Shown piece after piece: positions 11,217-51,704 of a stretch of DNA of 64,000 bases. The stretch is taken from the NCBI GenBank assembly GCA_963713825.1, contig CAVQNG010000003.1, positions 384,001-448,000 of the forward strand, in the 5' to 3' direction. The DNA is from an uncultured Acidobacteriota bacterium (GTDB taxonomy: Bacteria > Acidobacteriota > Thermoanaerobaculia > Multivoradales > JAHEKO01). Position 1 is the first letter of the stretch; every line of letters begins with the position of its first letter. The notes under the pieces are model-generated. The model ran no database searches. It was not told where the DNA came from and was given only the letters and a program-made list of their open reading frames with translations. Made by a program: the position numbers and the translations under genes.

Positions 11217-11289
11217 TTCCTCTCCCGGTCAACCTCTTCCCCGGGGCGGGCCCAGATGCTAGCAGCAACGGCATGGCCGATCAGAACGT

Positions 11290-11517
11290 CCTGCCCCCCC
11301 GGCGATGCCGACTGCGACGAGGTTCGAACGGTCTGGAACGGCATGAACGACCGACGGCGTGTACTCCAACTACATGGATGGCGACGAAGATGGGCGCGCG
11401 GTGGCGGCCTTTGCAGACAACCTGGAGCGACTGAAGGTCATCAAGGCGAAGTACGATCCGGACAACTTCTTCAACGCCAACCAGAACATCGTCCCGGTCG
11501 CGACGGCCGTCGACTAG
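11290..11517 (+). pseudogene. Internally deleted relic of a FAD-binding (BBE-family) oxidoreductase
   Basis: PGDADCDEVRTVWNGMNDRR (N-terminal motif) joined out of frame to GVYSNYMD...NLERLKVIKAKYDPDNFFNANQNI (BBE C-terminus). Confidence 0.75.
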
Positions 11518-11633
11518 GTCGGCACCTGTTTCGACCCCTCACAAACTCGTGTGGCACCGAGATTCGTCCTCTGGCCATCGAGACAAATCGGGGGCTTCAC
11601 CAACAGGCGGATGCGCTACAATCCGCTGCACAC

Positions 11634-14096
11634 GTGATTGGACAAACGCTTTCTCACTACAAAATCACCGGCAAGCTGGGCGAAGGCGGTATGGGGGCGG
11701 TCTATCGAGCCCAGGACTCCGAGCTCGACCGCGAAGTAGCCCTCAAGGTTCTGCCTGCCGAGATGGCGGAAGATTCTGATCGGCTCGAGCGCTTCCAACG
11801 CGAGGCCAAGGCGGTCGCTGCTCTCAATCATCCCAACATCATCACCATCCACTCGATCGAATCTGCCGTAATCGAGGAAGAAGTCGGAGAGGAGAGCTCC
11901 GCCGCCTCGAGAACAGTTCATTTCATGACCATGGAGCTGATCGATGGCGACAGCCTCGATGGCCTACTGCCGCCAGGCGGCCTATCGCTATCGAGGACAT
12001 TCGACATCGCGATTCCACTCGCCGAAGCTCTGACGGTGGCCCACGAGAAGGGCATCGTTCACCGGGATCTCAAGCCGGCGAACGTCATGCTGACCAGAGA
12101 TGGGAGGGTCAAGGTACTGGATTTCGGGCTGGCCAAACTGGCTGCTGGGGGAGACCCGGCCGCAGACGGTGAGGCCACCGAGATGGCGACTCGAACAGCC
12201 CTCACTCGGGAAGGCGTGGTCATGGGCACTGCGCCCTATATGTCGCCAGAGCAGGTGCAGGGTGAACGGGTCGATCAGCGCACAGACATCTTTTCGCTGG
12301 GAATCGTGCTCTACGAGATGGTCACCGGACAGCGGCCCTTTCAAGGCAGCAACTCTGCGGCATTGGTGTCCAGCATTCTGAAAGACACTCCGCCCCCAGC
12401 CATCGAGGTGCGCACCGACTTACCGCGCCACCTGGGCCGGATCATCCAGCGCTGTCTGGAGAAGGAGCCCCGGGAGCGCTATCAAACAGCCCTCGATGTG
12501 GGAAACGAGTTGAAGGGGATCCGCAAGGAGTTGGAATCGGGCGAGCTCTCCAAGGCGAGTGGGACGCAACCGGCAGCACCGCAGTCTGCCGAGGTCTCAG
12601 CGGCGACAACCGCACACTCCGACTCGATGCCACAGGTCCATGCACCTCGTCGTGGTCTTTGGGCAGCAGTGGCGGCTGCAGTAGTCGTGCTGGTGCTGGC
12701 CGTTGGCTGGTGGCTCGGCCGTGGCTCTGGGCCCGATCGACCAGCGAGCGAATCAACCGATCGAGCCACGGGTTCCGCCTCGACCATGGCGACCAGACCC
12801 TCGACCGAGCCCTCAGTCGCAGTGCTGCCCTTCGCCGACTTGAGCCCGAACAAGGACCAGGAGTACTTCACGGACGGGTTGACCGAAGAGCTCATCCAGG
12901 CTCTCGCCAAGGTCGAAGGGCTCCAGATTCCTGCCCGCACTTCGGTCTTTGCTCTCAAGGGCACCAACCTGAGTGTCCAGGAGATCGGCGATCGCCTGGG
13001 TGTCGAGAACGTCCTCGAAGGCAGTGTCCGCAAGTCGGGGAATCAGCTGCGCATCAGCGCCCAATTGATCAAGACGTCGGACGGTTTCAACCTCTGGTCC
13101 GAGACCTACGACCGTGAGCTCGAAGATGTCTTCTCGATTCAGGACGAGATCGCGAGCAACATCGTCGGGGCTCTACAGCTGACCCTGAGTCCAGGCGAGA
13201 AGAGGGGGATTCAAGCCGAGCGCACTGCCGACGTCAGGGCGTACGACCTCTACCTGCGGGGCAGGGGATTCTTTCGGCGACGCACGATCGAGGGCTTTCA
13301 GTCGGCCCGTGATTTCTTCTCCGATGCCATCGAGCTGGACCCGGAGTTTGCCGCAGCCTACGCCGGACTGGCGGACACCTACACCGAGATCTGGACCAAC
13401 TACGAGGGGACCGACGAGAACCTGGCCAAGGCGGAGGAAGCGAGTCGAAAGGCAATCGAGCTCGATCCCAACCTCGCGGAGGCTCACGTGGCACGAGGCT
13501 ATGCCCTCGGGCGACAGCAGTACGGAGAGGCCGAGCGGGAGTTTCAGATCGCCATCGAGCTCAACCCAGGGCTCTTCGAAGCCTATTATTCCTATGGTCT
13601 TTCCGCCTTCGCGCAGGGAGAAATGGAGAAGGCGGCCCAGATGCTGGAAAAGGCCCATGAGGTCGCTCCGGAGGACGAAAGAGCCCTGCGACTTCTGCCT
13701 CAGGTCTACCGCAGCCTCGGCCGTCTGGAAGATGCGAGCAAGGCCAACGAACGCCGACTGGTTCTGGCGGAGAAGCGCCTCGAGCTCCATCCCGAGGATG
13801 TCTATACCCTCCTCGACGGAGCGTACTCGCTGGCCGATCTCGGCAAACGGGAGCGTAGCTTGGAGTGGGCTGCCCGGGTGTTGGAGGCGCAAACGGACGA
13901 CGGTCTGATTCTCTACAACCTCGGCTGTTTCTTCTCCATCGCCGGCGAAGCCGAGCCTGCTCTCGATGCACTGGAGAGGTCCTACGAGGCGGGATTGTCC
14001 GACCCCGATTGGATGGCCCAGGACAGCGACCTCGACAACATCCGCGACCAGCCCCGGTACAAGGCTCTCGTCGAGCGCATGGAAGCCGACAGGTAG
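11634..14096 (+). CDS. Ser/Thr kinase + TM + TolB-like + TPR
   Basis: GTG start aligned with the paralogues (IGQTLSHYKIT), complete kinase motifs, SVAVLPFADLS, TPRs. Confidence 0.9.
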   Translation: MIGQTLSHYKITGKLGEGGMGAVYRAQDSELDREVALKVLPAEMAEDSDRLERFQREAKAVAALNHPNIITIHSIESAVIEEEVGEESSAASRTVHFMTMELIDGDSLDGLLPPGGLSLSRTFDIAIPLAEALTVAHEKGIVHRDLKPANVMLTRDGRVKVLDFGLAKLAAGGDPAADGEATEMATRTALTREGVVMGTAPYMSPEQVQGERVDQRTDIFSLGIVLYEMVTGQRPFQGSNSAALVSSILKDTPPPAIEVRTDLPRHLGRIIQRCLEKEPRERYQTALDVGNELKGIRKELESGELSKASGTQPAAPQSAEVSAATTAHSDSMPQVHAPRRGLWAAVAAAVVVLVLAVGWWLGRGSGPDRPASESTDRATGSASTMATRPSTEPSVAVLPFADLSPNKDQEYFTDGLTEELIQALAKVEGLQIPARTSVFALKGTNLSVQEIGDRLGVENVLEGSVRKSGNQLRISAQLIKTSDGFNLWSETYDRELEDVFSIQDEIASNIVGALQLTLSPGEKRGIQAERTADVRAYDLYLRGRGFFRRRTIEGFQSARDFFSDAIELDPEFAAAYAGLADTYTEIWTNYEGTDENLAKAEEASRKAIELDPNLAEAHVARGYALGRQQYGEAEREFQIAIELNPGLFEAYYSYGLSAFAQGEMEKAAQMLEKAHEVAPEDERALRLLPQVYRSLGRLEDASKANERRLVLAEKRLELHPEDVYTLLDGAYSLADLGKRERSLEWAARVLEAQTDDGLILYNLGCFFSIAGEAEPALDALERSYEAGLSDPDWMAQDSDLDNIRDQPRYKALVERMEADR

Positions 14097-22419: not shown

Positions 22420-24003
22420 CTATTCCTGGCGACCGAACAGGCCCATGGACTTGACCAATCTCGACTCGATCGGCCATCGGGTCTCGAGGTTGGAGACGCG
22501 ATACCGTGCCACCGGGTAATAGAGCTTGGCCAACGCGACCACCAGGGGATTCGTCTTCTTGTACGGATTGACGAAGTGTCCCTTGCCCAGGAACATCAGA
22601 GGAAAATCAAGCGCCGTGATCATCTTCTTGGTGGCAGCCGGCAGCCAGGGTGAATCAGCTGCCACGTTGCGGAAGTTGAAGTGCCCCCACCCCTCGAGGG
22701 TTGCGGGCTCGCGCAATCCCTGCTCGACACAGACGTCGTACAACTGTGTTCCCGGGTATGGCGTGTAGATGTTGAAGGTCTTGACGGCTCTGGGGTTCTC
22801 GTCCGTGAGCTGGACCGCCAGCTGAATACTCTCTTCGAGCTCTGCGGGGGTCTCCGAGGGCAGTCCCATCATGAACAGGTAGATGGGCACGATCGGATAG
22901 GGAATCAGCTTCCTATTGGCCTCGATTACCTGCTCTACGGTGACGTCCTTCTTGATCAAGTCGAGAAGCCGTTGGCTGCCGGACTCGACCCCGACTGTGA
23001 GGCGCTTGACCTTCGCCTGAACCAGGAGCTCCAGAAAGTCCTCATCCATCTTGCAGATGGTGTCCGCTCGGATCTGCAGCTTGCTGATGGAGATGTCCAG
23101 GTCGGCACGAACGATGGCCTCCAAGATGGACCGCGCCCGCTTCATGTCGATGAAGAAGTGGTCGTCGGTAAACAGGAATCCACGGATGTCGTGGTCAGTG
23201 ATGATGCGTTGCAGCTGCTCGAGTACGGTATCCGGCTGCATCGCTCGCCATTTCCGCTTGTGCATCACCGGGTCCCAACAGAAGTTACAGCGGAAGGTGC
23301 AGCCCCGGCTGGAATTGAAACTGACGTGATCGATGCCAAAGAGCCGCCGTCGATAGCGGTTCATGTCGATCAGATGGTAGGAGAGAGGCGCCTGCTCGTC
23401 CATATTCACGAAGGGCCGCTCGCCGGTCCACCGGAAGCCGTTGGACTCCACCACTGGACCAGCGCAGGAGCTGTCGGCTTGGGGTTTCAGGACAGGCAGG
23501 ATCGATCCAGCCTCGGCGCGCACAGTGCCGGAAGCGGCGGAAGTCTCTCCATCTTCCTTGTACCAGATGCCGGCGACCTGGCTCAGCGGCGTCCCTGACT
23601 CCAGAGCTTTGACCAACTCCAGAAACGTCTCTTCGCCCTCACCCACGACGACGATATCCACCAGGGGATGCGACAGGGTCTGCTGCGGCATCAGGCTGGC
23701 GTGAACGCCTCCCCAAACGATCGGCACGTCAGGGTGTCGCTTGCGCACCAACCTGCAACCTTCGAGCGCATGCCAGATCTGAGGTCCCGTCATACAGGTG
23801 ACACCGAAGCAAATCGGCCGCTCCTCGATGCCAGCCAACAACTCCTGCTTCCAATCTGGATTGGCAAACTCGTCGATGATCTGGATGCGGTAACCGAGGC
23901 GATCCAATGGCGTCGCCGTGCACAACAGGCTCAAGGGCAGCTCCACCCGTCGCTGCACTTGCTTGCCTGCCCTCGGCGCTGGATTGAAAAGTACGATGTC
24001 CAT
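22420..24003 (-). CDS. B12-binding radical SAM protein
   Basis: N-terminal B12 domain (WGGVHAS, VVGEGE), SRGCTFRCNFC, GVESGS, MGLPSET, TPYPGT. Confidence 0.92.
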   Translation of the reverse strand: MDIVLFNPAPRAGKQVQRRVELPLSLLCTATPLDRLGYRIQIIDEFANPDWKQELLAGIEERPICFGVTCMTGPQIWHALEGCRLVRKRHPDVPIVWGGVHASLMPQQTLSHPLVDIVVVGEGEETFLELVKALESGTPLSQVAGIWYKEDGETSAASGTVRAEAGSILPVLKPQADSSCAGPVVESNGFRWTGERPFVNMDEQAPLSYHLIDMNRYRRRLFGIDHVSFNSSRGCTFRCNFCWDPVMHKRKWRAMQPDTVLEQLQRIITDHDIRGFLFTDDHFFIDMKRARSILEAIVRADLDISISKLQIRADTICKMDEDFLELLVQAKVKRLTVGVESGSQRLLDLIKKDVTVEQVIEANRKLIPYPIVPIYLFMMGLPSETPAELEESIQLAVQLTDENPRAVKTFNIYTPYPGTQLYDVCVEQGLREPATLEGWGHFNFRNVAADSPWLPAATKKMITALDFPLMFLGKGHFVNPYKKTNPLVVALAKLYYPVARYRVSNLETRWPIESRLVKSMGLFGRQE

Positions 24004-24015
24004 TGCGCTCCTGAC

Positions 24016-24996
24016 TCAGTCTTCCGACGTTTCGCCTCTATTGGCCCCCGCCGGTGCGCTCTGAAGGCGACGCTCGCCGCCCACCAGGTCGGGATTGAAC
24101 GCTTCGAACTCGGCGGGCTCGGCAAGATGGCTCGGGGATCGATGATCGAAAGCGTACTCTCCTACCACCGGGGCCAGGCCAGACACCGGAACACCGCTCC
24201 TTTCAGCGACCAATTTGGACACGGGACGAAGCTGAGACAGGTCGATTCCGGTCTCGAAGCCCTCACGCCCGAGGAGCACCGCCACCTGCTCGAGACTGGC
24301 ATTGCCCGCCCGGTCGCCCAGTCCATTGATGGTCGCATCGATAACCGACGCACCCGCCAGAACCGCGGCCAAGGAGTTCGCGGTGGCCAGGCCCAAGTCG
24401 TTGTGACCGTGAAAGATCACCGTCGTACCCAGCTCTCCGACCAAACGGCCGACGATCTCGCGAACGCCAAACGGCTCGGCGCTGCCGTTGGTGTCGTAGA
24501 AAGTGATTCGCCCGGCACCGGCAGCGGCCGCCTGGCCAGCGATGTCAACGACAAAATCCTCATCGGTCTGGCTGGAGTGGGGAAACCCCACACCGACGTC
24601 GGAAAAGTGCTGGCAGGCCCAGGACAGAGCCTCCAGCATCATGGATACCTTGCCCTTGCGGGATGTGGGCTCACGCCTGGCCGACAACGGCACGAGCAGG
24701 TCGATACGATCGAGAAGGGCCGCAGCCTGCTCCACCTCACCTCGGAACTCAGGGGACGAAGCGTAGATCAACCCGGAGAGACGCAGACCGACCGCCGACT
24801 CCCGAAGCGCGCGGACAACTTCGAGGTCCGCCTCGACGCGGCTTGGCGCGACGACCTCTGCCTCCGCAACACCCAGCTGAGCCAAGGCCGTGGCAATCTC
24901 AGTCCGAGCTGCCATGTCGAACCACACCCCAGGGGTGTCCATGGCCTCCCTCAGGGTCGAGTCTCGCAGGATGATATGGCGCTTTGAATCCGGCAA
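24016..24996 (-). CDS. Homocitrate/isopropylmalate synthase-like DRE-TIM enzyme lacking the regulatory domain
   Basis: DSTLRE, HGHNDLGLATAN, GLGDRAGNA; GAGGAG RBS before TTG 24996. Confidence 0.85.
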   Translation of the reverse strand: MPDSKRHIILRDSTLREAMDTPGVWFDMAARTEIATALAQLGVAEAEVVAPSRVEADLEVVRALRESAVGLRLSGLIYASSPEFRGEVEQAAALLDRIDLLVPLSARREPTSRKGKVSMMLEALSWACQHFSDVGVGFPHSSQTDEDFVVDIAGQAAAAGAGRITFYDTNGSAEPFGVREIVGRLVGELGTTVIFHGHNDLGLATANSLAAVLAGASVIDATINGLGDRAGNASLEQVAVLLGREGFETGIDLSQLRPVSKLVAERSGVPVSGLAPVVGEYAFDHRSPSHLAEPAEFEAFNPDLVGGERRLQSAPAGANRGETSED

Positions 24997-25031
24997 TGGA
25001 GAATCTCCTCGGGAGAACGGCCCTGCTCGGG

Positions 25032-26219
25032 TCAGTCCCCCGCCTCCCACTCCTCGGCCCACGCTTCCGGAACAACCTTACCGTCCGGCCTACCTGTACC
25101 GCTGGTGAGACACACCAGGACTCGGGTGCCGGCGGCAATCCGGCCGGCGGCAATCTCTTTCAGCGTCCCGGTCAGTGCCAGCAGGCCCGTCGTTTCCACG
25201 ATCTCTCCTTCTCGGACGAATATGTTCACGCCTGCTGCCGCCAGGACGTCCAAGATCCCGGCACCGTCGAATTCGTCCTCCAGTAGACGTCTGAAGTCTG
25301 CCGAGTCTACAAGAGTCAGATCACCTTTCGTCTCGCCCAGAATTCCGCGCAACTCCTCGACCGTACCGTAGCTTTGCGGGCTGGCGTCATACATGACACG
25401 GGTCAGGAGCCGCCCCGTTGAATCGATCTCTGAACCGACCTCTCCCGCTCCGGCGCCCGTGTCAGTACCCCGTAGGGCGCGATACATGGGGCAATTGGGG
25501 GCTTGCTGGACACCGAGAAAGCTCGGCAGTCGACCCAGGTCGTGCTTGTGCTGGCGCAGCACCCGAAAGATGCCGATGGGGGCAAAGGCTGCGCTGATGG
25601 TCTGGGCCAGAATGTCGAACCGCAACCCAGAGAGCATGGCTTCGAGCAGGAAGCTGCCGATGAACGTCGATGCCTCCAGGCGCCACTCGGGCTGCGGAAC
25701 CTTGGGGAGCCCCTCGCGCTTGCGAAGCTCACTGGCCACTTGCTTGACGCGGTGACGATCCCGCACAGCAATGAGATGCGTGGTCGTAGCCTCGAAGGCG
25801 GCACTGTCCAGGAGACTGAGATTCTCGCCTGGGAGAACCAGGTACGTCTCCAGTCCGACCCGCCTGCCGTAAATGGAAAGTGCTGTACCAGTGTTGCCGC
25901 CCGACTCGAACGCGACCTTCTGATACCCCCGCTGCAGCGACCTCGCGATCGAGACCGCTCCGTCGATCGACTTCAGGGTGTGCGTGTGCATCAGGGAGGT
26001 CTCATCCAGCACCGAAATCTCCACGTCGCGGTAGGTAAGGAGCGGCAAGATCCTCAGCCCCTCACGGATGCTCGTGCGTTCCAGGAGCCCCTTGAAAGCC
26101 TCATCGTCGGCTGGCGACTCCTCGAAGCGCAGGCAGTTCCGATACCGCAGAACCACGCTTTGCTCGCCGCTATGACGCCGATCGATAGCGCCCAGAAACT
26201 CACTCGCCGAAGAATTCAT
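25032..26219 (-). CDS. PLP-dependent fold-type II enzyme (threonine synthase-like)
   Basis: THTLKS (PLP Lys), ESGGNTG, GVQQ, VETTG, VLVCLTSG. Confidence 0.78.
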   Translation of the reverse strand: MNSSASEFLGAIDRRHSGEQSVVLRYRNCLRFEESPADDEAFKGLLERTSIREGLRILPLLTYRDVEISVLDETSLMHTHTLKSIDGAVSIARSLQRGYQKVAFESGGNTGTALSIYGRRVGLETYLVLPGENLSLLDSAAFEATTTHLIAVRDRHRVKQVASELRKREGLPKVPQPEWRLEASTFIGSFLLEAMLSGLRFDILAQTISAAFAPIGIFRVLRQHKHDLGRLPSFLGVQQAPNCPMYRALRGTDTGAGAGEVGSEIDSTGRLLTRVMYDASPQSYGTVEELRGILGETKGDLTLVDSADFRRLLEDEFDGAGILDVLAAAGVNIFVREGEIVETTGLLALTGTLKEIAAGRIAAGTRVLVCLTSGTGRPDGKVVPEAWAEEWEAGD

Positions 26220-26772
26220 GATGCGTCATCTCTGCCAGAGGCCGTAGTTGTTTGGTCGGGGGCGTCTCGTCCGGATAGCCAAGAGGGAGAAGGGTCACCA
26301 GCCGAATCCCCTCGGGTAAACGCAGGAGCTTACCGAGCTCCACTTCGAGGCCGCGATCGTGTGGCTGGTAGGCCGACAGATAGACGCTGCCGAGCCCCTT
26401 GTCTTGCGCCGCCAAGAGCAGCCATGCGGTGGCCAGAACGCCATTCTCCAGGTCGCGGCCAAAGGACCGGTCCTGATCCACCCCCACCGCCACAATCACC
26501 GGGGCCCGGGAAACAAAGTCGGCCAGGAAGGAGCTCTTCTCAGCTGGGCAGAAACGGTTCTTGAGCTCGCTGATCCGCCTCTTGGTCTCGGCATCACGGA
26601 CAACGACAAAGCACCACGGTTGCCCATTCATGGACGAAGGTGCCTGCCTCGCTGACTCCAGGATCTCTGTTATCACCGCCTCCGGCACGTCTCGAGTCTG
26701 GTAGCGGCGAATCGACCGGCGTTGCAGGACAACCTCTTCGAAATTCTGGGCTGACACAGTTCTCTCTCCCAT
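26200..26772 (-). CDS. Nitroreductase family flavoprotein
   Basis: RRSIRRY, APSSMNGQPW, GLGS, LGYP. Confidence 0.92.
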   Translation of the reverse strand: MGERTVSAQNFEEVVLQRRSIRRYQTRDVPEAVITEILESARQAPSSMNGQPWCFVVVRDAETKRRISELKNRFCPAEKSSFLADFVSRAPVIVAVGVDQDRSFGRDLENGVLATAWLLLAAQDKGLGSVYLSAYQPHDRGLEVELGKLLRLPEGIRLVTLLPLGYPDETPPTKQLRPLAEMTHHEFFGE

Positions 26773-26798
26773 CCGTGAAGATTCTCGATCCTGGAGGA

Positions 26799-28019
26799 CT
26801 ATAGTCGCAGTGACCTGCGAAAGTACGGCTTGGACAGAGCTCCCACCAGGGACACCGGTAGCCAGCCACGGCGGTGGCCTTCCAGTGCCAGGTTCATCAA
26901 ACGGGAGCTGGCCGAAGGATTCTCTGCTGCAGCCCTCACCGCCTGGTGTCGCTCCACGGCGATCGGCTCCGCGATCGAGCGCACGGTGAGCCCGCGGCTG
27001 TCGGCCTGCTCGAGAAGATCCGTCATCATTCTTCTCATCCAGTTGTCGATGAGGTTCGCTGCCTCCTGCAGGGCGATGCCGGCAAAATCCATCGTGCCGC
27101 CCAGGACTCCACCGCTGTTACACACGAAATCGGGAAGGTAGAGGTGGCCGCGATCGAAAAGAGCCGCCTCGGCTTCTGGAGTCGCCGGATTGTTGGCACC
27201 CGGACAGATGATGGGAGCAGCGATCCGAGAGACATTGTCCTGGTGCAGTGAGTAGTGCCGTGCACAAGGAAGAAGCAGGTCGACGGGCAACTCGAGCAGC
27301 TCATGGCGTTGCAGTACGAGCTTGGGGTCGTACTCTTTGACGATTCGGCTGCCCATTTCCCTTGCCATGCCCCGTAGTCGATCGATATCCAAGCCCTCGG
27401 GGTCGTAGAGAGCTCCCTGCGAGGTAGATATCGCCACCACCTTTGCACCGCGACTGCTAAGCAAATCTGCCACCACAGAACCCACACTTCCGAAGCCTTC
27501 GATCGCGACCTTGCTGCCTACAAGGCTGCCCTGCCGCCACTCCACGGCTGCCTGAGCGGCCGCCACACAGCTCACCGCGGTGTAGTAGCCGGAGTCCCTC
27601 CCACGCCACTCGCGGTGCTTCACCGCTAGACCGATGGAGCACATCATCGAGCGTATGTCCTCTCCTCGGGTGCCCAGGTCGGCATCGGGTTGATAAACCC
27701 TCTGCATGAGATAGGGACGAACAGCAGCTGCAAAGTCGCTCAACAACCGCTGCCTTTCCTCTGGTGGCGCTTCGGCATCGCCGCGAATTCCCGCCTTGGC
27801 TCCTCCCTGAGGCAATCCAAGGAGACCGTACTTCAGCGTCATCGCGCGGGCTGCCACGCACAGCTCGACCTCGCTGAGATCAGGAACGATCCGCAGGCCG
27901 CCCCGGGAGCACTCACCAATTGTGGAGTCGATGACGATGAAAGCCGCCGGGGACTCCCCGCCTCCGACCTCGATAACGCGCTGCTCGTCGCGCTGACGGC
28001 TCTCGACTTCCCAGGTCAT
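26799..28019 (-). CDS. Glu/Leu/Phe/Val dehydrogenase family protein
   Basis: GGLR, MTLK, GGAKAG, EGFGSVG, GANNP, PDFVCNSGGV. Confidence 0.9.
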   Translation of the reverse strand: MTWEVESRQRDEQRVIEVGGGESPAAFIVIDSTIGECSRGGLRIVPDLSEVELCVAARAMTLKYGLLGLPQGGAKAGIRGDAEAPPEERQRLLSDFAAAVRPYLMQRVYQPDADLGTRGEDIRSMMCSIGLAVKHREWRGRDSGYYTAVSCVAAAQAAVEWRQGSLVGSKVAIEGFGSVGSVVADLLSSRGAKVVAISTSQGALYDPEGLDIDRLRGMAREMGSRIVKEYDPKLVLQRHELLELPVDLLLPCARHYSLHQDNVSRIAAPIICPGANNPATPEAEAALFDRGHLYLPDFVCNSGGVLGGTMDFAGIALQEAANLIDNWMRRMMTDLLEQADSRGLTVRSIAEPIAVERHQAVRAAAENPSASSRLMNLALEGHRRGWLPVSLVGALSKPYFRRSLRL

Positions 28020-28276
28020 GACGGAACCTGCCGCACCACGAGCTTGAACTTCCGGGATTCTGGAGGTGGAAAGAAGTCAGTCTGGACCAGAGAAACATCC
28101 ATGTCTTCGTGTGTGAGGCGCCACAAAATCTGGAGCAATCACCACCGACTCGCCTCTGAGGCACTGTCTGGGTTCGCGCCTCCGTAGGGGAGAGCCATCA
28201 GGAATTCGGCAGTCAATTCAAGTGCGAACTGTACCAGTCTCTCTGGTTCCCTGGGACAGTAGATCCGGGTCGCCAG
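28016..28276 (-). CDS. Small protein with an in-frame UGA (candidate selenoprotein); start CTG 28276 or ATG 28198
   Basis: Single frame with TGA at 28141-28139, a hairpin just downstream, and an ATGA overlap with the dehydrogenase start. Confidence 0.5.
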
Positions 28277-28316: not shown

Positions 28317-29666
28317 TCAGTCGACCGCGGCACCAACGGCGAAACCCGGATCGCTGTCCGGGTCGAACCCGAGCGCGTCTCGGTCCAGGATCCGGCCTCC
28401 CCGCATCACCATGTGTATGTCACGAGTCCGACGGATGTCCCGGTCGGGCCGACCCTCGACGACGATCAGGTCGGCCACCTTGCCGGCGGTGATGGTGCCC
28501 CAGTCGTCGGCACCGATCAGAAGCGCTGCGTTCCGCGTCGCAGTCGTGATGGCTTCGAGAGGGGACAGCCCCGCCTCCACGAGTAGCTCGAGCTCCCGGT
28601 GGATGCCCTCCCCCTGAGCCACACCCGGATAGGGAGCGTCGGTGCCCGCGACCAACAGAATACCTGCTCGGTGCAGCCTTTGGACGTTCTTCGTGGCGAT
28701 GTCGAGCTTCACTCCGCTAGCCGCGGCAACCTTCTTGTCCTCGTCCGTGAGGTCCTGGGTCGCGTGCTCCCGCAGGGCAGCCAGAAAGGCGGGCGGAGTG
28801 GTGTTCGCGATCAACGGGTGGTCGAGGAAAGCCGGCTCCTCGAACCGCCGCCGCGAGTGCGACTCCTGCACCGCCAGGGTGGTGATGACCATGGTCTTCT
28901 TCTCGACGATCAGGTCGAAGCTGAGCTGGTCGATCTCGCGCGTCGGCGCGTGGGCAAGTGCGGCGATCCCGGCGGCGGTCACGTCATAGGAGCCGTTGCG
29001 ACTCCAGAGATCGGCAATCACGGGAAGAGAGCTCCCAGAGGCGACCTCGACCAGTTCACGAAGAAGTGGAACCGAAAGTCCCCCGTACGCTTTGACAGCG
29101 TCGACGCCGGAGCGCTCCAGCATCGCGACCACATCGGCTACCTGGGAGTCGATGACAAGACCGACTGAAAACGGCGGCCATGATGGATCGGCATCGTCCA
29201 CCAGCGGACCGACACAGTAGATCCGGGGACCGGCGATGGTGCCTGCCGCGACCTCGTCCCGGAGCTGCAGAACAAACGGCATGATATTCCCAAGATCGAA
29301 GACAGTGGTGACCCCGGAGTACAGAAGGGCATTCAGATACCTTTGATAGCCGAGCCAATCCGAACCGACGCCATCCCACCCGCCCATCAGATGGACGTGC
29401 ATGTCAGCGAGACCTGGCATCACGGCTCTTCCCTCGAGGTCGATCACTCTTGCGTCAGTCGGGAGGCGGACCCTAGCCGCCTCACCCACGGCCTCGATCC
29501 GCCCATCACGCACCAGGACCACGCCGTTCTCGACGGGCGTTCCACCGTTTCCGTCGATGACCACGCCACCAATGAGGGCGACAGGGCTTTCACCGAACAC
29601 CACTCCGGGGCACACGAGTGCCATGACAAGGCTGAGCACTCGCACGATCCTCTTGCCACTGGCCAT
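28317..29666 (-). CDS. Exported metal-dependent amidohydrolase
   Basis: Signal peptide, PGLADMHVH, AGTDA, GKVADL. Confidence 0.88.
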   Translation of the reverse strand: MASGKRIVRVLSLVMALVCPGVVFGESPVALIGGVVIDGNGGTPVENGVVLVRDGRIEAVGEAARVRLPTDARVIDLEGRAVMPGLADMHVHLMGGWDGVGSDWLGYQRYLNALLYSGVTTVFDLGNIMPFVLQLRDEVAAGTIAGPRIYCVGPLVDDADPSWPPFSVGLVIDSQVADVVAMLERSGVDAVKAYGGLSVPLLRELVEVASGSSLPVIADLWSRNGSYDVTAAGIAALAHAPTREIDQLSFDLIVEKKTMVITTLAVQESHSRRRFEEPAFLDHPLIANTTPPAFLAALREHATQDLTDEDKKVAAASGVKLDIATKNVQRLHRAGILLVAGTDAPYPGVAQGEGIHRELELLVEAGLSPLEAITTATRNAALLIGADDWGTITAGKVADLIVVEGRPDRDIRRTRDIHMVMRGGRILDRDALGFDPDSDPGFAVGAAVD

Positions 29667-29861: not shown

Positions 29862-32800
29862 TTACCGCCAGTTCAAGCGGACACCGAGTCGGAAGACCCG
29901 AGGTGCCAGCGAGGTACTGATCCACCCCACGTTGCTGGAGGTGGTGTTGCGGAAGCGATCCAGTACGACACCGTCGTTGAAGATATTAAAGGCATCGATC
30001 GAGAAGGTCAGGCCGAGGTTACCCGTCGTCCTGAATTCTTTCTCGAGCCGCATATCCATGGAGAAGAGATCCTCCAGGCGATAGTCGTCGATGTTCGGAG
30101 CGGCCTGAATCGACCGTGCGATTCCGTCCAGACCGGTTCTGTTCCCGTAGTACGGAATCGGATAGCCATTGCGGCCGGTCATGTTGGCGGCGACGTTGAA
30201 GCCCCAGGGCTTGTCAGGCGCCACCTGATACATGCCGTTCAAGTTCCAACCCCAGTCTGACTGCAGCCACGACTCGTTGCGGCCGGAACCGGTCGACTGC
30301 ACGACGTACTTCGAGCCGTCGATCACAAAGCCCTCTTGAGGCACTGTCGGCAGCGCTCGGTTGGGATCGTTGTTGTTGAAGTAGCTACCCGGCACGCTCC
30401 AGGACTCGTCGAAGTTGTACTGGATGTAGCCACGCATCATCCACTGGTTCGCCAGTCGCTTCGTGAAGCCGATGGTTGCACCGAGGTAGTCGATCTCACG
30501 GTCACCGTTGGTGAACAGCTGACCACCCGTGTAGTTCCATTTCGACGGATCCGCCGAAAAGGTGTCATACGAGTAGGTCGCAGCAGGTCCACCAATGCCC
30601 GGCACCGTGATGTCGAGTTGCGTCGGGTCCGTGATGTACTCGCTGGCCGGAAGCGTCCTTGGCGTTGCCTGATCGTCGCCGACCGGCGTGAACAACCGCT
30701 GGAAGTCCTGTACATCCGTGACCTTACGCCAGGTGAGGGTACCGCTGACCACGAACTCAGGCAGGAAGGCATGCTCGGCACCAAGGATCAACTCGTTGGT
30801 GAGCGGAGCATCCATGCCCGGGTCGTTCTTGTTGGATGACGACAGGGCTGTCGGGTCATTCGGGTTGAAGCCCCAGTATCCCGCCGCTACCGAATACTGC
30901 TCACCGTCATCGTAGAAGCCGGGGAAACCACCCGTATCGTCGACGAAGACGATGTACGCCAACTGAGCGGACAAGGGGTTCGTCCGGCTGATGTTGGTCA
31001 ACGACATGACATCCGGGAACTGCGAGAAGCTACCGCGCAGCAGCGTCTTGCGCTCCTCACCGAGGGCGTAAGTGACACCCAGGCGAGGAGTGATACTCGA
31101 CCAATCGAGTCCGTCGGCATCGTTGCCCGCGAAATCGATGGACGGCATGACATTCGGGAAGCCGGGGTTGGCGTCCACGACACCAGCCGTGTTCTCACCG
31201 TTCTGCTTGTCGTATCGGAAGCCGACGTTGAAGGTCCACTGGCCCATCGTCATCGTGTCCTGTACCCACAACGAATCGTAATTCGTGATGACAGGTACGG
31301 GACCCTGACGGTAGGCGTAAACCGCAGCGTAGTCGTCCGCACGGTTCACAGGCAGTCCGAGCGAGGCACCCAGAGCAACGTCGCCCGCCACTCCGGCATA
31401 GGTGCCGTCGTAGTGGAAGAGGTTCCGACCAGGATACGACCAGGCGCTCTCGGTGGAGGCTTCACGCGTCCGACCACCAAACTTGAGCTCGTGGTTCAAG
31501 CTCGAGGTGGTGAAGAAGTAGGAACCGTCGATCTTGATCTCCTCGGTCGGACGGCTGTTGCCGCCGGAAGCGTTGTTGGTCACGAAGCCGTTGCCGTCCG
31601 TGTACTTCTCACCGCCGGGGAACGGATCCGCAGCGTTGCCCGTACCGGCACCACCCTGCGCCGTCAGCGAGAAACCGCCGTCGACGAAGGAGTACTGACC
31701 GGTCAGGAACAGGTTCGAGCCGAAGACGTGCGTGTCCTCGATCTTGGTGATCCCCGTCGGACCACGCTGGTTCCAGGTCGCCGAGGGGTCGTTGTTCGGC
31801 GCCGCACCACGGCCGATCTTCCGTTTGTCACCGTTGTTGAACGAGGCAACGAAAGAGTTGGCATTGGTGAACTGCGCGTTCAGCTTGATCGCGGTGCCCT
31901 CGAGGATCGTGCGGTCGGACTGACCACCACCGGTGATCCGGTTGATGTCGTTCTGACCCCACGAAGCCCACAGCCAGACGCGATCCCGCCACGCCGGACC
32001 ACCGGCCTCGAAGCCGAATTCCTGAATCCGATCGACGGTGTCACCTTGGTAGTTGTCCTGACCCGGTCCGAGATCGCTGTCCGAGTAACCCGGATCCGCG
32101 GCTTCGAGCGCGCCAAAGTAACCAGCGGCATCTGTCAGCAGAAAGCGTGCCGTGCCGCGGAACTCGTTGGTACCACGCTTGGTGACCATATTGACCGAGA
32201 CACCGGCTGCGCCCTTGCTTACATCGGGACCACCGGTTGCCAGCTGAATCTCGGAGAACTGGTCGAAGTCGTAGTAGGTCGGTGAGGAGCCGATGGCGGA
32301 CATGTCCGTGATCTGGACACCGTCGACGAGAAAGTCGTTCTCGTCACCGTTGTTGGCCTGGCCACGGAAGACGGCCTGCTGGCCGCTCTCGTTACCACCG
32401 ACGTTGATGCGGTCGGTCATGACTCCGGGAGCCTGCTGCACGATGGCCCACGGGTCACGCGCGCTCGGAATGCTCTCGAGCTCGACCTGACTGATCGTGG
32501 TACCGGCGGTGAGCCGGCGCTCATCCAGCAGCGGGCTCTCGGAGGTCACCGTGATCACCTCACCAATGGCAGCACTGAGCTGCACCAGGATCGTGGTGTT
32601 ACGGCCAACCCTGACATTGACGGTCGGGTACTCAACGGAGGAGAACCCGTCTAAGGAGGCCTTGAGCGCATAGTCGCCTGGGGCCAGACCGAGGAAACGG
32701 GTCTCACCTTGCGCGCTGGTAATCCCGAGCTTGGGAGCTCCACCACCCGTCAGCTCGACACTGGCGCCCGGCAGAGCTTGTTCTGTGGTGTCGGTGACCT

Positions 32801-32906
32801 GGACGTAGATGTTCCCGGTCTCCTCTTGTGCGATTGTGGTTGCCGCTGTGCTCAGCAGTAGTACGACTGCCAACGCTAGCGGCCATGACCATCTGTTCGT
32901 TCTCAT
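29862..32906 (-). CDS. TonB-dependent receptor, Oar type with an N-terminal carboxypeptidase-regulatory-like domain
   Basis: Signal peptide, LPGASV, ARDPW plug, VTKRGTNEFRG, SPRLG-like motif, C-terminal PRVFRLGVRLNWR. Confidence 0.9.
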   Translation of the reverse strand: MRTNRWSWPLALAVVLLLSTAATTIAQEETGNIYVQVTDTTEQALPGASVELTGGGAPKLGITSAQGETRFLGLAPGDYALKASLDGFSSVEYPTVNVRVGRNTTILVQLSAAIGEVITVTSESPLLDERRLTAGTTISQVELESIPSARDPWAIVQQAPGVMTDRINVGGNESGQQAVFRGQANNGDENDFLVDGVQITDMSAIGSSPTYYDFDQFSEIQLATGGPDVSKGAAGVSVNMVTKRGTNEFRGTARFLLTDAAGYFGALEAADPGYSDSDLGPGQDNYQGDTVDRIQEFGFEAGGPAWRDRVWLWASWGQNDINRITGGGQSDRTILEGTAIKLNAQFTNANSFVASFNNGDKRKIGRGAAPNNDPSATWNQRGPTGITKIEDTHVFGSNLFLTGQYSFVDGGFSLTAQGGAGTGNAADPFPGGEKYTDGNGFVTNNASGGNSRPTEEIKIDGSYFFTTSSLNHELKFGGRTREASTESAWSYPGRNLFHYDGTYAGVAGDVALGASLGLPVNRADDYAAVYAYRQGPVPVITNYDSLWVQDTMTMGQWTFNVGFRYDKQNGENTAGVVDANPGFPNVMPSIDFAGNDADGLDWSSITPRLGVTYALGEERKTLLRGSFSQFPDVMSLTNISRTNPLSAQLAYIVFVDDTGGFPGFYDDGEQYSVAAGYWGFNPNDPTALSSSNKNDPGMDAPLTNELILGAEHAFLPEFVVSGTLTWRKVTDVQDFQRLFTPVGDDQATPRTLPASEYITDPTQLDITVPGIGGPAATYSYDTFSADPSKWNYTGGQLFTNGDREIDYLGATIGFTKRLANQWMMRGYIQYNFDESWSVPGSYFNNNDPNRALPTVPQEGFVIDGSKYVVQSTGSGRNESWLQSDWGWNLNGMYQVAPDKPWGFNVAANMTGRNGYPIPYYGNRTGLDGIARSIQAAPNIDDYRLEDLFSMDMRLEKEFRTTGNLGLTFSIDAFNIFNDGVVLDRFRNTTSSNVGWISTSLAPRVFRLGVRLNWR

Positions 32907-46818: not shown

Positions 46819-47238
46819 TCAATCGTTGGGCTCGATCGGTGTGCAGTAGGAAAAGAGAGCCAGAACGTGGCCCTCCAGGACAACGGCGGTCGATCCGGTC
46901 CCCGAGTCCTGGTCGAGAACAATACTGAATGCGCGGCTATCCTGGACACCCTGGATAAAGATCCGGTCTCCTTCGCGCTCGATGCTCTTCATCGGCGTCG
47001 AGCGGTCTTCGCCGCTCGCTGCCGTGGTGCGGAGCATCTTCTCCTTCAAGTCGACCTTGACGAACCGAGGAGCACTCCATTCACCGGGGTTGCCGGGAAA
47101 GCAGCTTCCGTCGGCAAAGCACTCGGTGGCTCGCACTGTGGTACAGAGCAGGTGATCTGCCCCGGTAACGTCATCGGCAAATGCTGGCGCTATCGCCAGG
47201 AGTGCCAGCGACGCGGCGGCAAGAATCATCGGTCTCAT
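46819..47238 (-). CDS. Exported hypothetical protein with Cys residues
   Basis: Signal peptide ending AFA; AGGAG RBS; four Cys. Confidence 0.7.
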   Translation of the reverse strand: MRPMILAAASLALLAIAPAFADDVTGADHLLCTTVRATECFADGSCFPGNPGEWSAPRFVKVDLKEKMLRTTAASGEDRSTPMKSIEREGDRIFIQGVQDSRAFSIVLDQDSGTGSTAVVLEGHVLALFSYCTPIEPND

Positions 47239-47408
47239 CTTCGTTTCTCCTCTATTGCTGGTTTCGAAAGAGGCAGGGCCTGCCTGGGCCAACGAGCTGC
47301 TGCCTCACCGCCCTCCTCCAATCCGCGGCGAACGCATTTGTAGAATTACAACGATACAGGATGTCACCTGAGGACCTCTATCCGCCATCGGGTTACAATC
47401 ACACCAAC

Positions 47409-49736: not shown

Positions 49737-51704
49737 CTACGGCGTGTACCAGATCGGTGCGGTGTAGGCTCGCTCCTGGTGCGTGGTTTCAGCGCCTTCG
49801 GGTATTTCGACGCCGAAACGAAACGCGTCGTAGACAATCCAGCGCGGCGTCGGGATCTCGAGTACACGTGCATAGTAAAACGCGCGCTGCTTTGGATCGA
49901 AGTCGGGATCGGTCCAGACCGTGGCAAGCTCGGATGCGCCTATGGTGTTCATCCAGTTGGCCGCCGCAATGTCCACCGTATTGCCGACTGCGGGCAGCAC
50001 GCCGCTGGCATTGGGCTCGCGGCCGGCAGACCAGGCGACGTCATAGACCTTCTCGTGCGTCTGGCCATTCGCATCCAGCCAGCCTTTCACGATCTGAATG
50101 CGGTCGAGGTTGGCGCCAATCGCATCGCGCAGAGCGTAGACCATGAAGGTGGGGGCACCGGCGGCGTTGTGTGCCCGCAGATCGCCACCCATCGGCACGC
50201 CTTTCTCGTAGCCCCGGAAGGCGGGCGCGCGGCTATTCAAGTCCTCTGCGGTGAAGTCCCAGCCCCCAAAGAAGCGCACGGTGATGCGCGGGCCCGTAGT
50301 GCCGTAGACCTCCTTGCGTGCCATCGCGTCCCAGATCGCAGTGCGGGTGTTCTCAGCAGCCCAAACGCCGGTATACCCCGAGGCGACCAGCTCGTAACCC
50401 TCGAAGACACCATTCTCGGTTTCCGTGAAGGGGTGCATCATGCGCCCGGGCGAAGGTTCGGCGTTGGTCGCCTTACCGAAGAAATTCTCTTCCTCGACAG
50501 CGGACAGCGCGGTATGGCTGTCGGTCGATCCGATGAGGCCGAACTTGTAGGGATTGGTGCCGAGGTTGTTCTCCAGCAGAAGTCCGTTCTTGAGGGCCTC
50601 GCGGGCATACTCGGTCTTGAGCATCGCTTCGGTCTTGGCTTCGGAAAGATCGAGATTACCGGCGTCCCAGGTCTCGTAGTCAGCGAAGGCGTCATCCGGC
50701 GACAGCAGCGGATGGGCCTCACCGTCGCCCTTGATCTGGGTGACCTCGTACATCGGCTCCCAGCGAGCCCGCTTCTCGACGTAGTTCCGGTCGATCTTGC
50801 GGCCGGTGTACTGCGCGTCAACCGGGAACATGATGCCGTTCGACAGATTGCCATTGTGGGCCAGGGCGAGCGCCGAGCCTCCGGTTTCGGCCTCGTAGCT
50901 CTCCAGATATGCATAAAGATCAAGCGGGTCTGTAGAACCGACCGGTGCCTGGGTGGTGTAGGGCACGACCTGGCCAGCCTTGGCGGCGCCCTCGCGGAAG
51001 ATCACGTTGCGGTGCAGGTTGTTGCCCTTGACCAGTGAGGTCCATTCGAAACCGATGAAGGTGGTGAACGAGCCCGGATCGTTGAAGCGCTCGGCCGCAT
51101 CGACGACCCTCTCCCAGATCGACTCATAGGTCGCACCGCCTGGTGAGTACTCGGCCATCATCTCTGGATTGATCTCACCCTGCGAGAAGGTGGTGATCAG
51201 ATCCAGCGCCGCTGCAACCGAGGAGTCGCCACCGGCCTGCAAGCCGTCGTACCAGCGCTTTCCCTGTTCGTACTTGATGATGTCTGGCTCGCCTGCAGCC
51301 ATGTCGGTGAAGAAACCCATGCCATCGGAATGATCGGCGATCACCAGCCAGTCGAGCGGGCGACCCAGTTTGGCCGGCTGGCCGCTCGAGGCCATCACTT
51401 CCTCGCCGCGGGCGAAGCGGTAGGCGTCGTCCAGGCCGAGGCGGGCGCCGAATAGACCAGCATCCATGGAGAGGCCTGTATGCAGGTGCGTGTCGCCCCA
51501 GAACACCTGGTCGGGGAAGCTGCGCTGTGCATAGGGCGAATACGCCTTGCCGGGATAGAGACCCGATAACGAGTCCTTAGAGGGAGTGATCTGGGCGAAC
51601 ACGGGCGCCGCAGAGCCAACAAGCAAGATCGCACACAGAAGACTGAAGGTCAGGATGGAACGGAAACGTGAGGGGGCCACCGTGGCCAATTGCGTCAAGA
51701 ACAT
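49737..51704 (-). CDS. DUF3604 family protein (PHP-like putative metallohydrolase)
   Basis: [38 protein letters not shown]; signal-like N-terminus. Confidence 0.88.

Follow-up and report, generated by a model that had tools for sequence, protein, structure and literature searches.

What is made by the compact block of enzyme genes on the minus strand of this stretch of acidobacterial DNA, which is referred to below, at its full length of 64,000 nucleotides, as the window? Five co-oriented open reading frames at 22420-28019 form one operon, and the five enzyme types proposed from the letters alone were all confirmed by Pfam (Table 1). Read 5' to 3', the genes encode a dehydrogenase, a nitroreductase-fold protein, a PLP enzyme, a homocitrate/isopropylmalate-synthase-like enzyme and a B12 radical SAM enzyme. 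From low to high coordinate they are separated by a 12-nt gap, a 31-nt overlap (given the GTG start), a 20-nt overlap in which the stop of the flavoprotein gene runs into the start of the PLP gene, and a 26-nt gap, as befits the compact operon of biosynthetic-type enzymes originally described. No terminator-like sites were found between the genes, except two weak 5-pair matches within coding sequence.

Table 1. Features of the cassette in the window
Feature	Position	Strand	Basis
B12-binding (class B type) radical SAM enzyme, 527 aa, last operon gene	22420..24003	-	Pfam B12-binding + Radical_SAM
Atypical homocitrate/isopropylmalate-synthase-like DRE-TIM enzyme, <=348 aa	24016..25062	-	Pfam HMGL-like
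Very divergent threonine-synthase-like fold-type II PLP enzyme, 395 aa	25032..26219	-	Pfam PALP
Nitroreductase-fold (FMN) protein, 190 aa	26200..26772	-	Pfam Nitroreductase
Glu/Leu/Phe/Val-dehydrogenase-like enzyme, 406 aa, first intact operon gene	26799..28019	-	Pfam ELFV_dehydrog N + C domains
3' remnant of PaaK/F390-synthetase-like ligase gene, ~40 codons	28019..28137	-	tblastn, DNA alignment with L002

The operon and its truncated ligase gene

All five genes are under purifying selection, with dN/dS values of 0.07-0.20 against three relatives. The genes also occur together in other genomes, as the original prediction required, and keep their order there; together these two observations place the grouping beyond chance. 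None of the five proteins reaches a curated NCBIfam cut-off, and searches of NCBIfam and the literature found no characterised pathway that matches the cassette. It is a real, conserved and uncharacterised five-gene cassette that probably builds a modified amino or hydroxy acid.

A sixth gene, for a small protein, had been placed at the head of the block. The frame running from 28276 is interrupted by a stop, and what is left, at 28016-28138, is a 40-codon frame with a TTG start. Its counterpart is the C-terminal end (~47 residues, 68% identity, tblastn) of a 431-aa PaaK-like ligase encoded at the related locus L002, where the ligase gene is intact and lies directly upstream of the dehydrogenase gene; no other part of that protein matches here. 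The window DNA aligns to L002 from about 28140 downward, and a search of the bacterium's own genome also returned this remnant, its match interrupted by a TGA. Contigs of runs X2 and X9 agree with the window up to 28137 and then run on into ligase-like sequence; the truncated form is bridged by other contigs. The supposed small protein is thus the end of a ligase gene deleted in this strain, whose pathway may therefore end differently or be incomplete. The intact ligase of L002 itself scores below the cut-offs of the DVU_1553-type ligase model (115 bits) and PaaK (93 bits).

Just upstream of the cassette, on the same strand, the window carries genes for a secreted amidohydrolase and a TonB-dependent receptor. 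A strong terminator lies between the receptor gene and the remaining genes, and neither gene is conserved beside the cassette in L001, L002 and L005.

Five enzymes below the NCBIfam family cut-offs

The PLP enzyme passes the PALP threshold of Pfam narrowly (39.8 bits, cut-off 35). Its AlphaFold2 model (pLDDT 85) is closest to class II threonine synthases in the PDB, with 1v7c, 6nmx, 2zsj and 2d1f as the top Foldseek matches, TM-scores of 0.56-0.66 (query-normalised) and 16-19% identity. In the alignment with Thermus threonine synthase (1uim) the lysine of TLKSIDG (K83) falls on K61, which binds PLP there, and the protein has the fold-type II PLP fold with its Schiff-base lysine. Nearly the whole length of the fold is shared with the threonine synthases of Thermus (1v7c) and Bacillus (6nmx) and with the related cysteate synthase CapA (9k3c), as are the lysine and the GNT loop. 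The threonine synthase model gives only 28.5 bits against a cut-off of 303, so by score the enzyme is not a member of that family; models for threonine and cysteate synthases together give 21-29 bits against cut-offs of 303-358. Of the ligands to the substrate phosphate only the GNT threonine can be aligned, the others lying beyond the alignable stretch.

Threonine synthase is not paired with a nitroreductase-fold gene, whereas this PLP enzyme is. At 61 of the 64 evaluable loci the flavoprotein gene immediately precedes the PLP gene, in the same orientation, and it is the PLP enzyme's most constant partner. The PLP family was taken as 121 representatives at E<=1e-30; among its distant relatives four independent representatives (742-757 aa) are fused to an acyl-CoA-dehydrogenase-like flavoprotein, so that a flavin partner recurs across the clade. 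The flavoprotein itself is a clear Pfam nitroreductase (PF00881, E 1.9e-23; AlphaFold2 pLDDT 89, with nitroreductases as top fold matches), its family keeping a Cys-Pro and two lysines invariant. It falls into none of the characterised subgroups tested (BluB, IYD, NfsA/B), scoring 70 bits for BluB (cut-off 150) and 53 for NfsA (cut-off 223). Among known structures it comes closest to Geobacter nitroreductases that are themselves uncharacterised (35-38% identity) and to iodotyrosine deiodinases. The earlier idea that it supplies reductant understates so constant a partnership.

The synthase-like gene, which starts at the GTG at 25062 or later, directly follows the PLP gene at 60 of the 64 evaluable loci. 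Its product belongs to the HMGL-like family (E 3.7e-49) and shares with homocitrate, isopropylmalate and citramalate synthases (Sulfolobus 6ktq, Neisseria 3rmj) the TIM barrel, the Arg-Asp/Glu of strand 1 (Arg-Glu here), the HxH metal site and NGLGxRAGN; LRE and HGHND are conserved in 37 family members. Against the NifV-type homocitrate synthase model it scores 217 bits (cut-off 463) and against isopropylmalate synthase 204 (cut-off 517). Claisen-condensing DRE-TIM synthases use a GEQ motif and a catalytic Glu on the xSxED strand. Both are missing from the alignment of this enzyme: the enzyme has AMD, and its family consensus GLD, in place of GEQ, while the strand RFTAED of 6ktq, or EFSCED of 3rmj, aligns with GFPHSS in a register uncertain by 1-2 residues. 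Unlike those synthases it has no C-terminal regulatory domain. With two Claisen motifs lost from its sequence, it may not use acetyl-CoA at all.

The dehydrogenase has both ELFV domains and the catalytic lysine motif GGAKAG. At the Lys and Ser positions which, by the numbering we assume, hold the γ-carboxylate in glutamate dehydrogenase, 28 family members carry R, C, S or H and Gly, respectively; the pocket is therefore not a glutamate pocket, and scores against the NCBIfam glutamate dehydrogenase models (<=145 bits) lie far from the cut-offs of 620-750. The radical SAM protein has a class B architecture, with a B12-binding domain at residues 23-130 (PF02310, E 2.1e-18), a Radical_SAM domain at 230-395 (PF04055, E 6.3e-24) and CTFRCNFC as its CxxxCxxC motif. 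Its best PDB sequence match has an E of 1e-13. It belongs to none of the named characterised subfamilies compared (BchE, HpnJ, PhpK, BzaD, TsrM and others), with 152 bits for BchE (cut-off 481), 120 for HpnJ (578) and 90 for PhpK (600). It is the most conserved cassette protein, at 92-93% identity to close relatives and 57-75% across phyla (dN/dS 0.07-0.10).

An almost invariant core with two back ends

The comparison set comprised 67 related loci that span many phyla, each from an uncultured bacterium. At 58 of them the flavoprotein and synthase-like genes both adjoin the PLP gene, making this trio an almost invariant core. What follows the core is of two kinds. Of the 30 loci that have the radical SAM gene, 24 also carry the dehydrogenase and 21 a methyltransferase. 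The dehydrogenase is likewise present at 30 loci, never with an adjacent NRPS-like gene. An NRPS-like A-T-TE gene directly follows the synthase-like gene at 17 loci, and none of these carries the radical SAM, dehydrogenase or methyltransferase genes. The two back ends, dehydrogenase/radical SAM/SAM methyltransferases and A-T-TE, are mutually exclusive, partly by kinship since the types cluster on the PLP tree. On that tree (a quick one, of 54 rows) the phyla are intermingled and the back end must have changed 2-5 times. The spread among this bacterium's relatives is patchy, strong matches being found in 6 of 40 (all five of the same genus and one other), and we read the cassette as accessory and horizontally shuffled. 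Class I methyltransferases occur at 24 of the 48 loci with full context and PaaK-like ligases at 6. The original statement that the block contains no NRPS holds for the window, but not for these relatives.

Sixteen cassette-adjacent A domains were aligned, L049 and L062 being excluded as a different ligase type. Position 235 (in the numbering we presume) is G or A, not D, in all 16, and a His and a Lys of the pocket are invariant. By this alignment the A-T-TE pocket lacks the Asp that binds an α-amino group. Single-module A-T-TE enzymes that activate α-keto acids are the terrequinone, atromentin and ralfuranone synthetases. They have the architecture and the missing Asp235 in common with the relatives' back end; they differ in that the core motif of the latter is SSTE, not YGPTE, in that the enzyme is absent from the window, and in that two of the relatives' loci (L032 and L057) continue with a second module, C-A-T-TE. 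The A-domain code of that module is DILQLGMVWK, which we take to be glycine-like.

A tentative pathway and its alternatives

Our leading interpretation, to which we would give a little less than an even chance, is a cassette for a methylated non-proteinogenic amino or hydroxy acid made from a 2-oxo-acid intermediate; the product class first suggested, a methylated non-proteinogenic amino acid, still appears reasonable. The S/Se content proposed along with it found no support in the analysis. We infer the chemistry from the enzyme types as follows. The PLP enzyme would carry out an elimination, with or without replacement, on O-phosphohomoserine or O-phosphoserine, both of them phosphorylated hydroxy-amino acids from primary metabolism, and the flavoprotein, at a guess, a two-electron step on the product. 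The DRE-TIM enzyme would condense an acetyl unit with the resulting 2-oxo acid to give a substituted malate-type acid, or alternatively a longer 2-oxo acid, should a housekeeping isomerase and dehydrogenase act on it further; the cassette has no chain-elongation isomerase or dehydrogenase. In this genome the dehydrogenase, with its non-glutamate-type pocket, might aminate a 2-oxo acid and the B12 radical SAM enzyme C-methylate the skeleton, yielding a methylated, neutral non-proteinogenic amino acid. The amination and the order of steps are putative. Attachment or activation of the product would fall to the ligase whose gene this strain has lost. Other lineages may instead load the acid, un-aminated, on the A-T-TE enzyme, with a glycine module next in two cases.

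The same genes might instead lead to an N-acyl amino acid or to an electrophile derived from an alkylmalate, along the lines of the warhead route of cystargolide and belactosin, although we consider this unlikely. The synthase-like enzyme would make a substituted malate, a class I methyltransferase would mask one carboxylate, a PaaK-like ligase or A-T-TE enzyme would activate the other for lactone or amide formation, and the PLP/flavin pair would only supply an unusual 2-oxo acid. The cystargolide cluster combines an isopropylmalate synthase homologue (CysA), adenylating enzymes (CysC and CysF) and a BioC-like methyltransferase, CysG, acting on 3-isopropylmalate (PMC10776993). Comparable company is kept by the synthase-like gene in the methyltransferases, ligases and His/Lys-lined A-T-TE enzymes of the related loci, and the glycine module at two of them would predict an acyl-glycine. 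The window, however, is without a methyltransferase and its ligase gene is truncated, the synthase-like enzyme has lost its canonical catalytic motifs, and the methyltransferases do not specifically resemble any O-methyltransferase of the cystargolide route whose structure is solved. An esterase and an ATP-grasp enzyme are missing here and are not recurrent partners elsewhere. The constant genes, for the PLP enzyme and the flavoprotein, have no counterpart in the cystargolide/belactosin pathway, nor do the dehydrogenase and radical SAM genes, in as much of that pathway as the available text covers (PMC10776993).

Catabolism or salvage is less probable again, with a slim chance at best. On this reading an imported amino acid would lose a leaving group through the PLP enzyme, the dehydrogenase would work in the deaminating direction and the DRE-TIM enzyme would serve as a lyase or aldolase. 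All three superfamilies have degradative members, and at L010, L015, L017 and L024 the cassette shares its operon with an NMT1-type ABC importer. The amidohydrolase and receptor genes upstream would also fit, but they are not conserved by the cassette in the three relatives named above, and the strong terminator sets the receptor apart. The company of the core is moreover biosynthetic: B12 radical SAM enzymes, methyltransferases, NRPS-like enzymes, ligases and glycan-assembly genes. An analogy with phosphinothricin or rhizocticin biosynthesis was drawn originally, and those pathways do draw on the same superfamilies (PmmS/FrbC synthases or aldolases, RhiB as a threonine-synthase-like PLP enzyme, PhpK as a B12 radical SAM methylase, and RhiG). 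The PhpK-family model does match the radical SAM enzyme, but far below its cut-off and below BchE and HpnJ, and none of the cassette proteins has a specific family membership. PEP mutase (TIGR02320) was not found in the 96%-complete genome by a search that was positive in 7 of 14 control genomes, nor among the recurrent neighbour families scanned with Pfam. The phosphonate or phosphinate reading is close to refuted. Modification of a ribosomal peptide or of the small protein, the latter raised at the outset, is unlikely, with scarcely any probability left to it. B12 and SPASM radical SAM enzymes often mature peptides, and methyltransferase models of RiPP type match weakly; against this, the small frame is a gene remnant, a search of 68 loci for small ORFs conserved outside the known genes returned only clusters antisense to those genes, and the dehydrogenase, synthase-like and threonine-synthase-like proteins are small-molecule enzymes.

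An aconitase-family gene follows the NRPS-like gene at L049, the only locus with one. In some Thermodesulfobacteriota/deltaproteobacterial, Dadabacteria and unclassified ('Bacterium HR37') metagenome-assembled genomes the cassette lies inside long cell-surface glycan operons.

The five-gene operon

The cassette consists of five enzyme genes on the minus strand, with 26 nt between the first two, then overlaps of 20 nt and 31 nt (the latter if the GTG start is right), and 12 nt ahead of the last. The five enzyme types originally assigned came back unchanged in a Pfam scan. With NCBIfam all five proteins fell well under the curated cut-offs, eg 217 of 463 bits for NifV, 152 of 481 for BchE, 70 of 150 for BluB, 28.5 of 303 for threonine synthase and 140 of 750 for archaeal GdhA. 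The protein sequences indicate that the enzyme classes are right and that none of the five genes is orthologous to a characterised enzyme.

Features of the window (positions and strand are those of the window)
Feature	Position	Strand	Remarks
Glu/Leu/Phe/Val dehydrogenase, 406 aa	26799-28019	-	Pfam, both domains
Nitroreductase-fold protein, 190 aa	26200-26772	-	Pfam Nitroreductase
PLP enzyme, 395 aa	25032-26219	-	Pfam PALP, 39.8 bits, barely over the 35-bit cut-off
Synthase-like enzyme, 348 aa	24016-25062	-	Pfam HMGL-like; GTG start
Radical SAM enzyme, 527 aa	22420-24003	-	Pfam B12-binding and Radical_SAM
TTG frame, 40 codons	28016-28138		Upstream of the dehydrogenase gene
Amidohydrolase	28317-29666		Rejected as cassette member
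Terminator-like hairpin	29829-29806	-	10 pairs, 9 of them G-C, then a T run
TonB-dependent receptor	29862-32906		Rejected as cassette member
Ser/Thr protein kinase, large, with TPR tail	11256-14096	+
Ser/Thr protein kinase, large, with TPR tail	47181-49619	+
DUF3604 protein	49737-51806	-
HMG-CoA-synthase-like protein, 630 aa	57320-59212	-	~130-aa N-terminal extension without Pfam match

Against three related loci in other genomes (L001, L002 and L005; 78-93% protein identity), dN/dS of the five genes was 0.07-0.20, with dS of 0.38-0.78, and the cassette was covered by contigs of four public runs (sediment, freshwater-sediment and salt-marsh metagenomes). The five-gene set is a real, conserved and selected operon. 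A promoter scan gave no sites, the terminator-like sites within the operon were weak 5-pair matches inside coding sequence, and across the entire window no Rfam family was matched. The amidohydrolase and the TonB-dependent receptor were considered as further members and rejected, as neither is conserved beside the cassette in L001, L002 and L005. The strong hairpin follows the receptor gene and precedes the amidohydrolase gene, and so sets the receptor apart.

The original prediction had included a sixth gene, for a small protein, upstream of the dehydrogenase. This gene did not survive inspection: the frame from 28276 has an internal stop, and the remainder is the 40-codon TTG frame. At L002 there is a gene for a PaaK/F390-synthetase-like ligase of 431 aa, the end of which shares the same ATGA overlap with the dehydrogenase start. 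When this ligase was compared to the window by tblastn only its last ~47 residues matched (68% identity), and the DNA alignment of the window with L002 is good only from ~28140 downward. The same fragment, with a TGA within the match, was returned by a search of the window's own genome. Contigs from sequencing runs X2 and X9 track the window to 28137 and continue with letters matching the L002-type ligase end, and the truncated form is bridged by other contigs (X9 record 32 and X1 record 8), so that the ligase deletion is a strain-level polymorphism in the population and the "small protein" its scar. Several metagenome contigs share a breakpoint at 28133-28137, some running into the intact-type ligase and others into different upstream DNA. 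In the genus to which the window belongs the cassette is on its own, the ligase being present in L002 and absent in the window and L005.

The conserved trio and its back ends

An alignment of 16 PLP-enzyme homologues, taken from 415 matches, was used to scan one genome per prokaryotic species. This gave 67 loci, all of them metagenome bins by title, from Acidobacteriota (Thermoanaerobaculia, Vicinamibacteria, Terriglobia), Gemmatimonadota, Thermodesulfobacteriota, 'delta proteobacteria', Binatia, Dadabacteria, Nitrospirota, Planctomycetota, Latescibacteria, Krumholzibacteriia, Riflebacteria and Rhodothermales. No cultured carrier was found, and the PLP enzyme was unmatched in the plasmid collection. 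Neighbours were counted by tblastn with the window proteins and representatives of recurrent neighbours. The nitroreductase-fold gene lies directly upstream of the PLP gene, on the same strand, at 61 of the 64 loci with enough upstream DNA (median gap between matches -11 nt), and the synthase-like gene lies directly downstream at 60 of the 64 with enough downstream DNA. Both are beside the PLP gene at 58 of the 67 loci. The window genes thus co-occur in other genomes, as the original prediction supposed; the trio is the constant unit and the radical SAM and dehydrogenase genes are optional.

Closer to the window, strong matches to the PLP family were present in 6 of 40 relatives, ie each of the five other members of the genus and one more genome from the family; in the remaining family and order genomes it was not found, bar weak or distant matches. 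A decayed variant was seen in G041 (L061 19991-20953, L081 170-704), where a nitroreductase-fold gene in two frames directly precedes the synthase gene and the PLP gene is missing from between the two; 10 kb off lies a PLP copy that is 35% identical and has 4 stop codons.

Radical SAM and dehydrogenase genes each occur at 30 of the 67 loci. The radical SAM gene is accompanied by a dehydrogenase at 24 of its 30 loci and by a class I SAM methyltransferase at 21. At 17 other loci an NRPS-like gene (A-T-TE, ~900 aa) comes directly after the synthase gene, taking the form of an A-T gene followed by a C-A-T-TE gene at L032 and L057; radical SAM, dehydrogenase and methyltransferase genes are absent from all 17. 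When only the 48 loci with full context (at least 3 kb upstream and 4.5 kb downstream) were considered, in counts which hinge on the query set and the 9-kb window and in which kin share labels, a radical SAM gene was present at 23, a dehydrogenase at 25, a methyltransferase at 24, a SPASM radical SAM gene at 9, an adjacent NRPS-like gene at 15 and a PaaK-like ligase at 6. Neither radical SAM nor NRPS-like genes were seen at 10, several of which have dehydrogenase and methyltransferase only.

In a quick maximum-likelihood tree built from 54 PLP proteins, none from an ORF shorter than 330 aa, the back-end types cluster, yet parsimony needs from 5 (NRPS) to 10 (radical SAM) changes, and the well-supported branches alone still require at least 2-3. 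Gemmatimonadota and Binatia have members in both back-end types. These comparisons depict an accessory cassette that passes between phyla and exchanges its back ends. Flanks of the NRPS-like type are not conserved; the exceptions are L032, with an ABC exporter, and L049, with an aconitase-family gene. The four genes of this type look self-sufficient. The aconitase-family gene (L049 6023-7491), directly after the NRPS-like gene of a Planctomycetaceae locus, is the only cassette-linked candidate isomerase for a substituted malate.

Active sites and a proposed acid product

The PLP enzyme matches solved threonine synthases marginally as a single sequence (E 1e-3) and at E 3e-9 as a family profile; its Schiff-base lysine (TLKSIDG) and GNT loop align with those enzymes. 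Nearest to its AF2 model (pLDDT 85) are class II threonine synthases, with TM of 0.56-0.66 (query-normalised) and 16-19% identity, followed by threonine deaminase, O-ureidoserine synthase and the cysteate synthase CapA2. An exhaustive HMMER search for the family gave 452 cluster representatives at E<=1e-3, of which 121 remain at E<=1e-30. The ESM Atlas offered leads only: clusters of the family itself, an actinobacterial one bearing DUF6002 and one of Bacteroidota cysteate synthases; a literature search for 'DUF6002' found no papers.

The partner flavoprotein is a minimal nitroreductase fold, nearest to two uncharacterised Geobacter proteins and the iodotyrosine deiodinases, and a Cys-Pro and two lysines are invariant in its family. 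No fused flavoprotein-PLP form was found in a search for longer proteins. The 680-aa nitroreductase+PLP protein P0148 was not trusted as a fusion because it is a frameshift-ridden read-through in a singleton cluster. Four distant homologues (P0223, P0224, P0232 and P0235; 742-757 aa, E 1e-32 to 1e-36) have an acyl-CoA-dehydrogenase-like flavoprotein domain N-terminal to the PLP domain, and therefore a flavin partner recurs in the PLP clade. More distant PALP proteins (P0260, P0264, P0269 and P0272) are fused to ribulose-phosphate 3-epimerase, phosphoribulokinase/uridine-kinase or RpiB-type isomerase domains.

The synthase-like enzyme retains the strand-1 Arg-Glu, the HxH metal site and an NGLGDRAGN motif. 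Its GEQ motif has become GLD in the family and AMD in the window, and its GFPHSS corresponds to the strand RFTAED of Sulfolobus homocitrate synthase and EFSCED of Neisseria isopropylmalate synthase. That strand holds the catalytic Glu of Claisen-condensing synthases, so the chemistry may be other than a standard Claisen condensation. The dehydrogenase keeps the catalytic GGAKAG. Across 28 members of its family the glutamate-binding Lys position is R, C, S or H and the Ser position is Gly, so the pocket is not a glutamate pocket. An acidic substrate (sulfonate or carboxylate) was considered and dropped because the window's Arg is not conserved in the family. The radical SAM enzyme has a cobalamin domain and CxxxCxxC, and is the most conserved of the set (57-75% identity across phyla, against ~50% for the others).

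The A domains of the NRPS-like genes bear on what the core might make. Sixteen cassette-adjacent A domains were aligned with three canonical A domains of the same loci, L049 and L062 being left out because theirs is a different ligase type. The position of Asp235 (GrsA numbering), which binds the alpha-amino group, is Gly or Ala in all 16. A His and a Lys are invariant in their pocket, and SSTE replaces YGPTE as the core motif. The downstream module of L032 and L057 has the code DILQLGMVWK, close to that for glycine. The simplest reading of the cassette-adjacent pocket is an acid without an alpha-amino group. The core would deliver such an acid, probably with a second acidic group, as a 2-oxo acid or substituted malate. 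In the NRPS-like type it would be loaded as a thioester, and in the window type it would be aminated by the dehydrogenase. The dehydrogenase and the A-T-TE never share a locus, which is consistent with one intermediate having two alternative fates, an argument weakened by kinship among the loci.

Known systems and glycan-operon context

Other readings were considered. A phosphonate pathway is contradicted by a search of the 96%-complete own genome, which gave no match to PEP mutase where control genomes were positive. Modification of a small protein, as in a RiPP system, fares no better: there is no precursor gene, and every conserved small ORF is antisense to a known gene. Nor is the cassette obviously catabolic, as the amidohydrolase and the receptor upstream do not accompany it elsewhere and the strong hairpin cuts off the receptor. 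The closest published gene-set logic found is the cystargolide/belactosin warhead route, where a homologue of isopropylmalate synthase is combined with a BioC-like methyltransferase and adenylating enzymes (PMC10776993); unlike the cassette, it has no PLP, flavin, dehydrogenase or radical SAM component. The cassette methyltransferases gave generic class I matches only against solved structures. The expectation that no characterised pathway would match held in the full-text literature found (subscription journals, MIBiG and antiSMASH were beyond reach), where the gene set is undescribed and no published function was found.

The cassette is an uncharacterised modular small-molecule pathway of clear architecture, with its chemistry read at the level of enzyme class only. 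It is compact and self-contained, and its PLP family numbers 121 or more sequence clusters at E<=1e-30. Three of the enzymes are outlying members of well-studied superfamilies (a distant threonine-synthase fold, a synthase without the usual catalytic motifs and a nitroreductase-fold protein with an invariant Cys), and new chemistry is therefore plausible. The modular back ends are a natural experiment for finding the shared intermediate, and the four-gene NRPS-like version is small enough for direct synthesis and expression. A bolder reading, which we consider unlikely, is that the flavoprotein and the threonine-synthase-like enzyme, products of overlapping genes, constitute a redox-coupled PLP catalyst of a new kind which, with the re-tooled DRE-TIM enzyme, would make an unseen class of small acid (eg a substituted-malate warhead, chelator or signal). 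The genes would be exchanged among bacteria of many uncultured phyla from sediment and soil, which would then pass the product to an NRPS-like releaser, to a methylation/amination branch or to cell-surface glycans.

At nine loci (L007, L009, L010, L011, L015, L016, L017, L024 and L036), from Thermodesulfobacteriota/deltaproteobacterial, Dadabacteria and unclassified ('Bacterium HR37') hosts, the cassette lies inside a long same-strand operon. Members include GT2, GT87 and GT4 glycosyltransferases, MOP-type flippases, Mur-ligase-like enzymes, a polysaccharide deacetylase, an amine-oxidase-like flavoprotein, alkaline-phosphatase-type phosphodiesterases and an NMT1-type ABC importer, together with a small 110-122-aa protein and a 530-aa protein, both without Pfam match. 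Class I methyltransferases number up to three, and a second B12-radical-SAM paralogue comes with a SPASM enzyme. At these loci the product probably ends up attached to a surface glycan or lipid. Two paralogous B12-radical-SAM genes share one operon in L010 (12184-17065) and L016 (9341-12330), each ~43% identical to the window homologue of the other; those of L010 lie on either side of a methyltransferase and a SPASM radical SAM gene.
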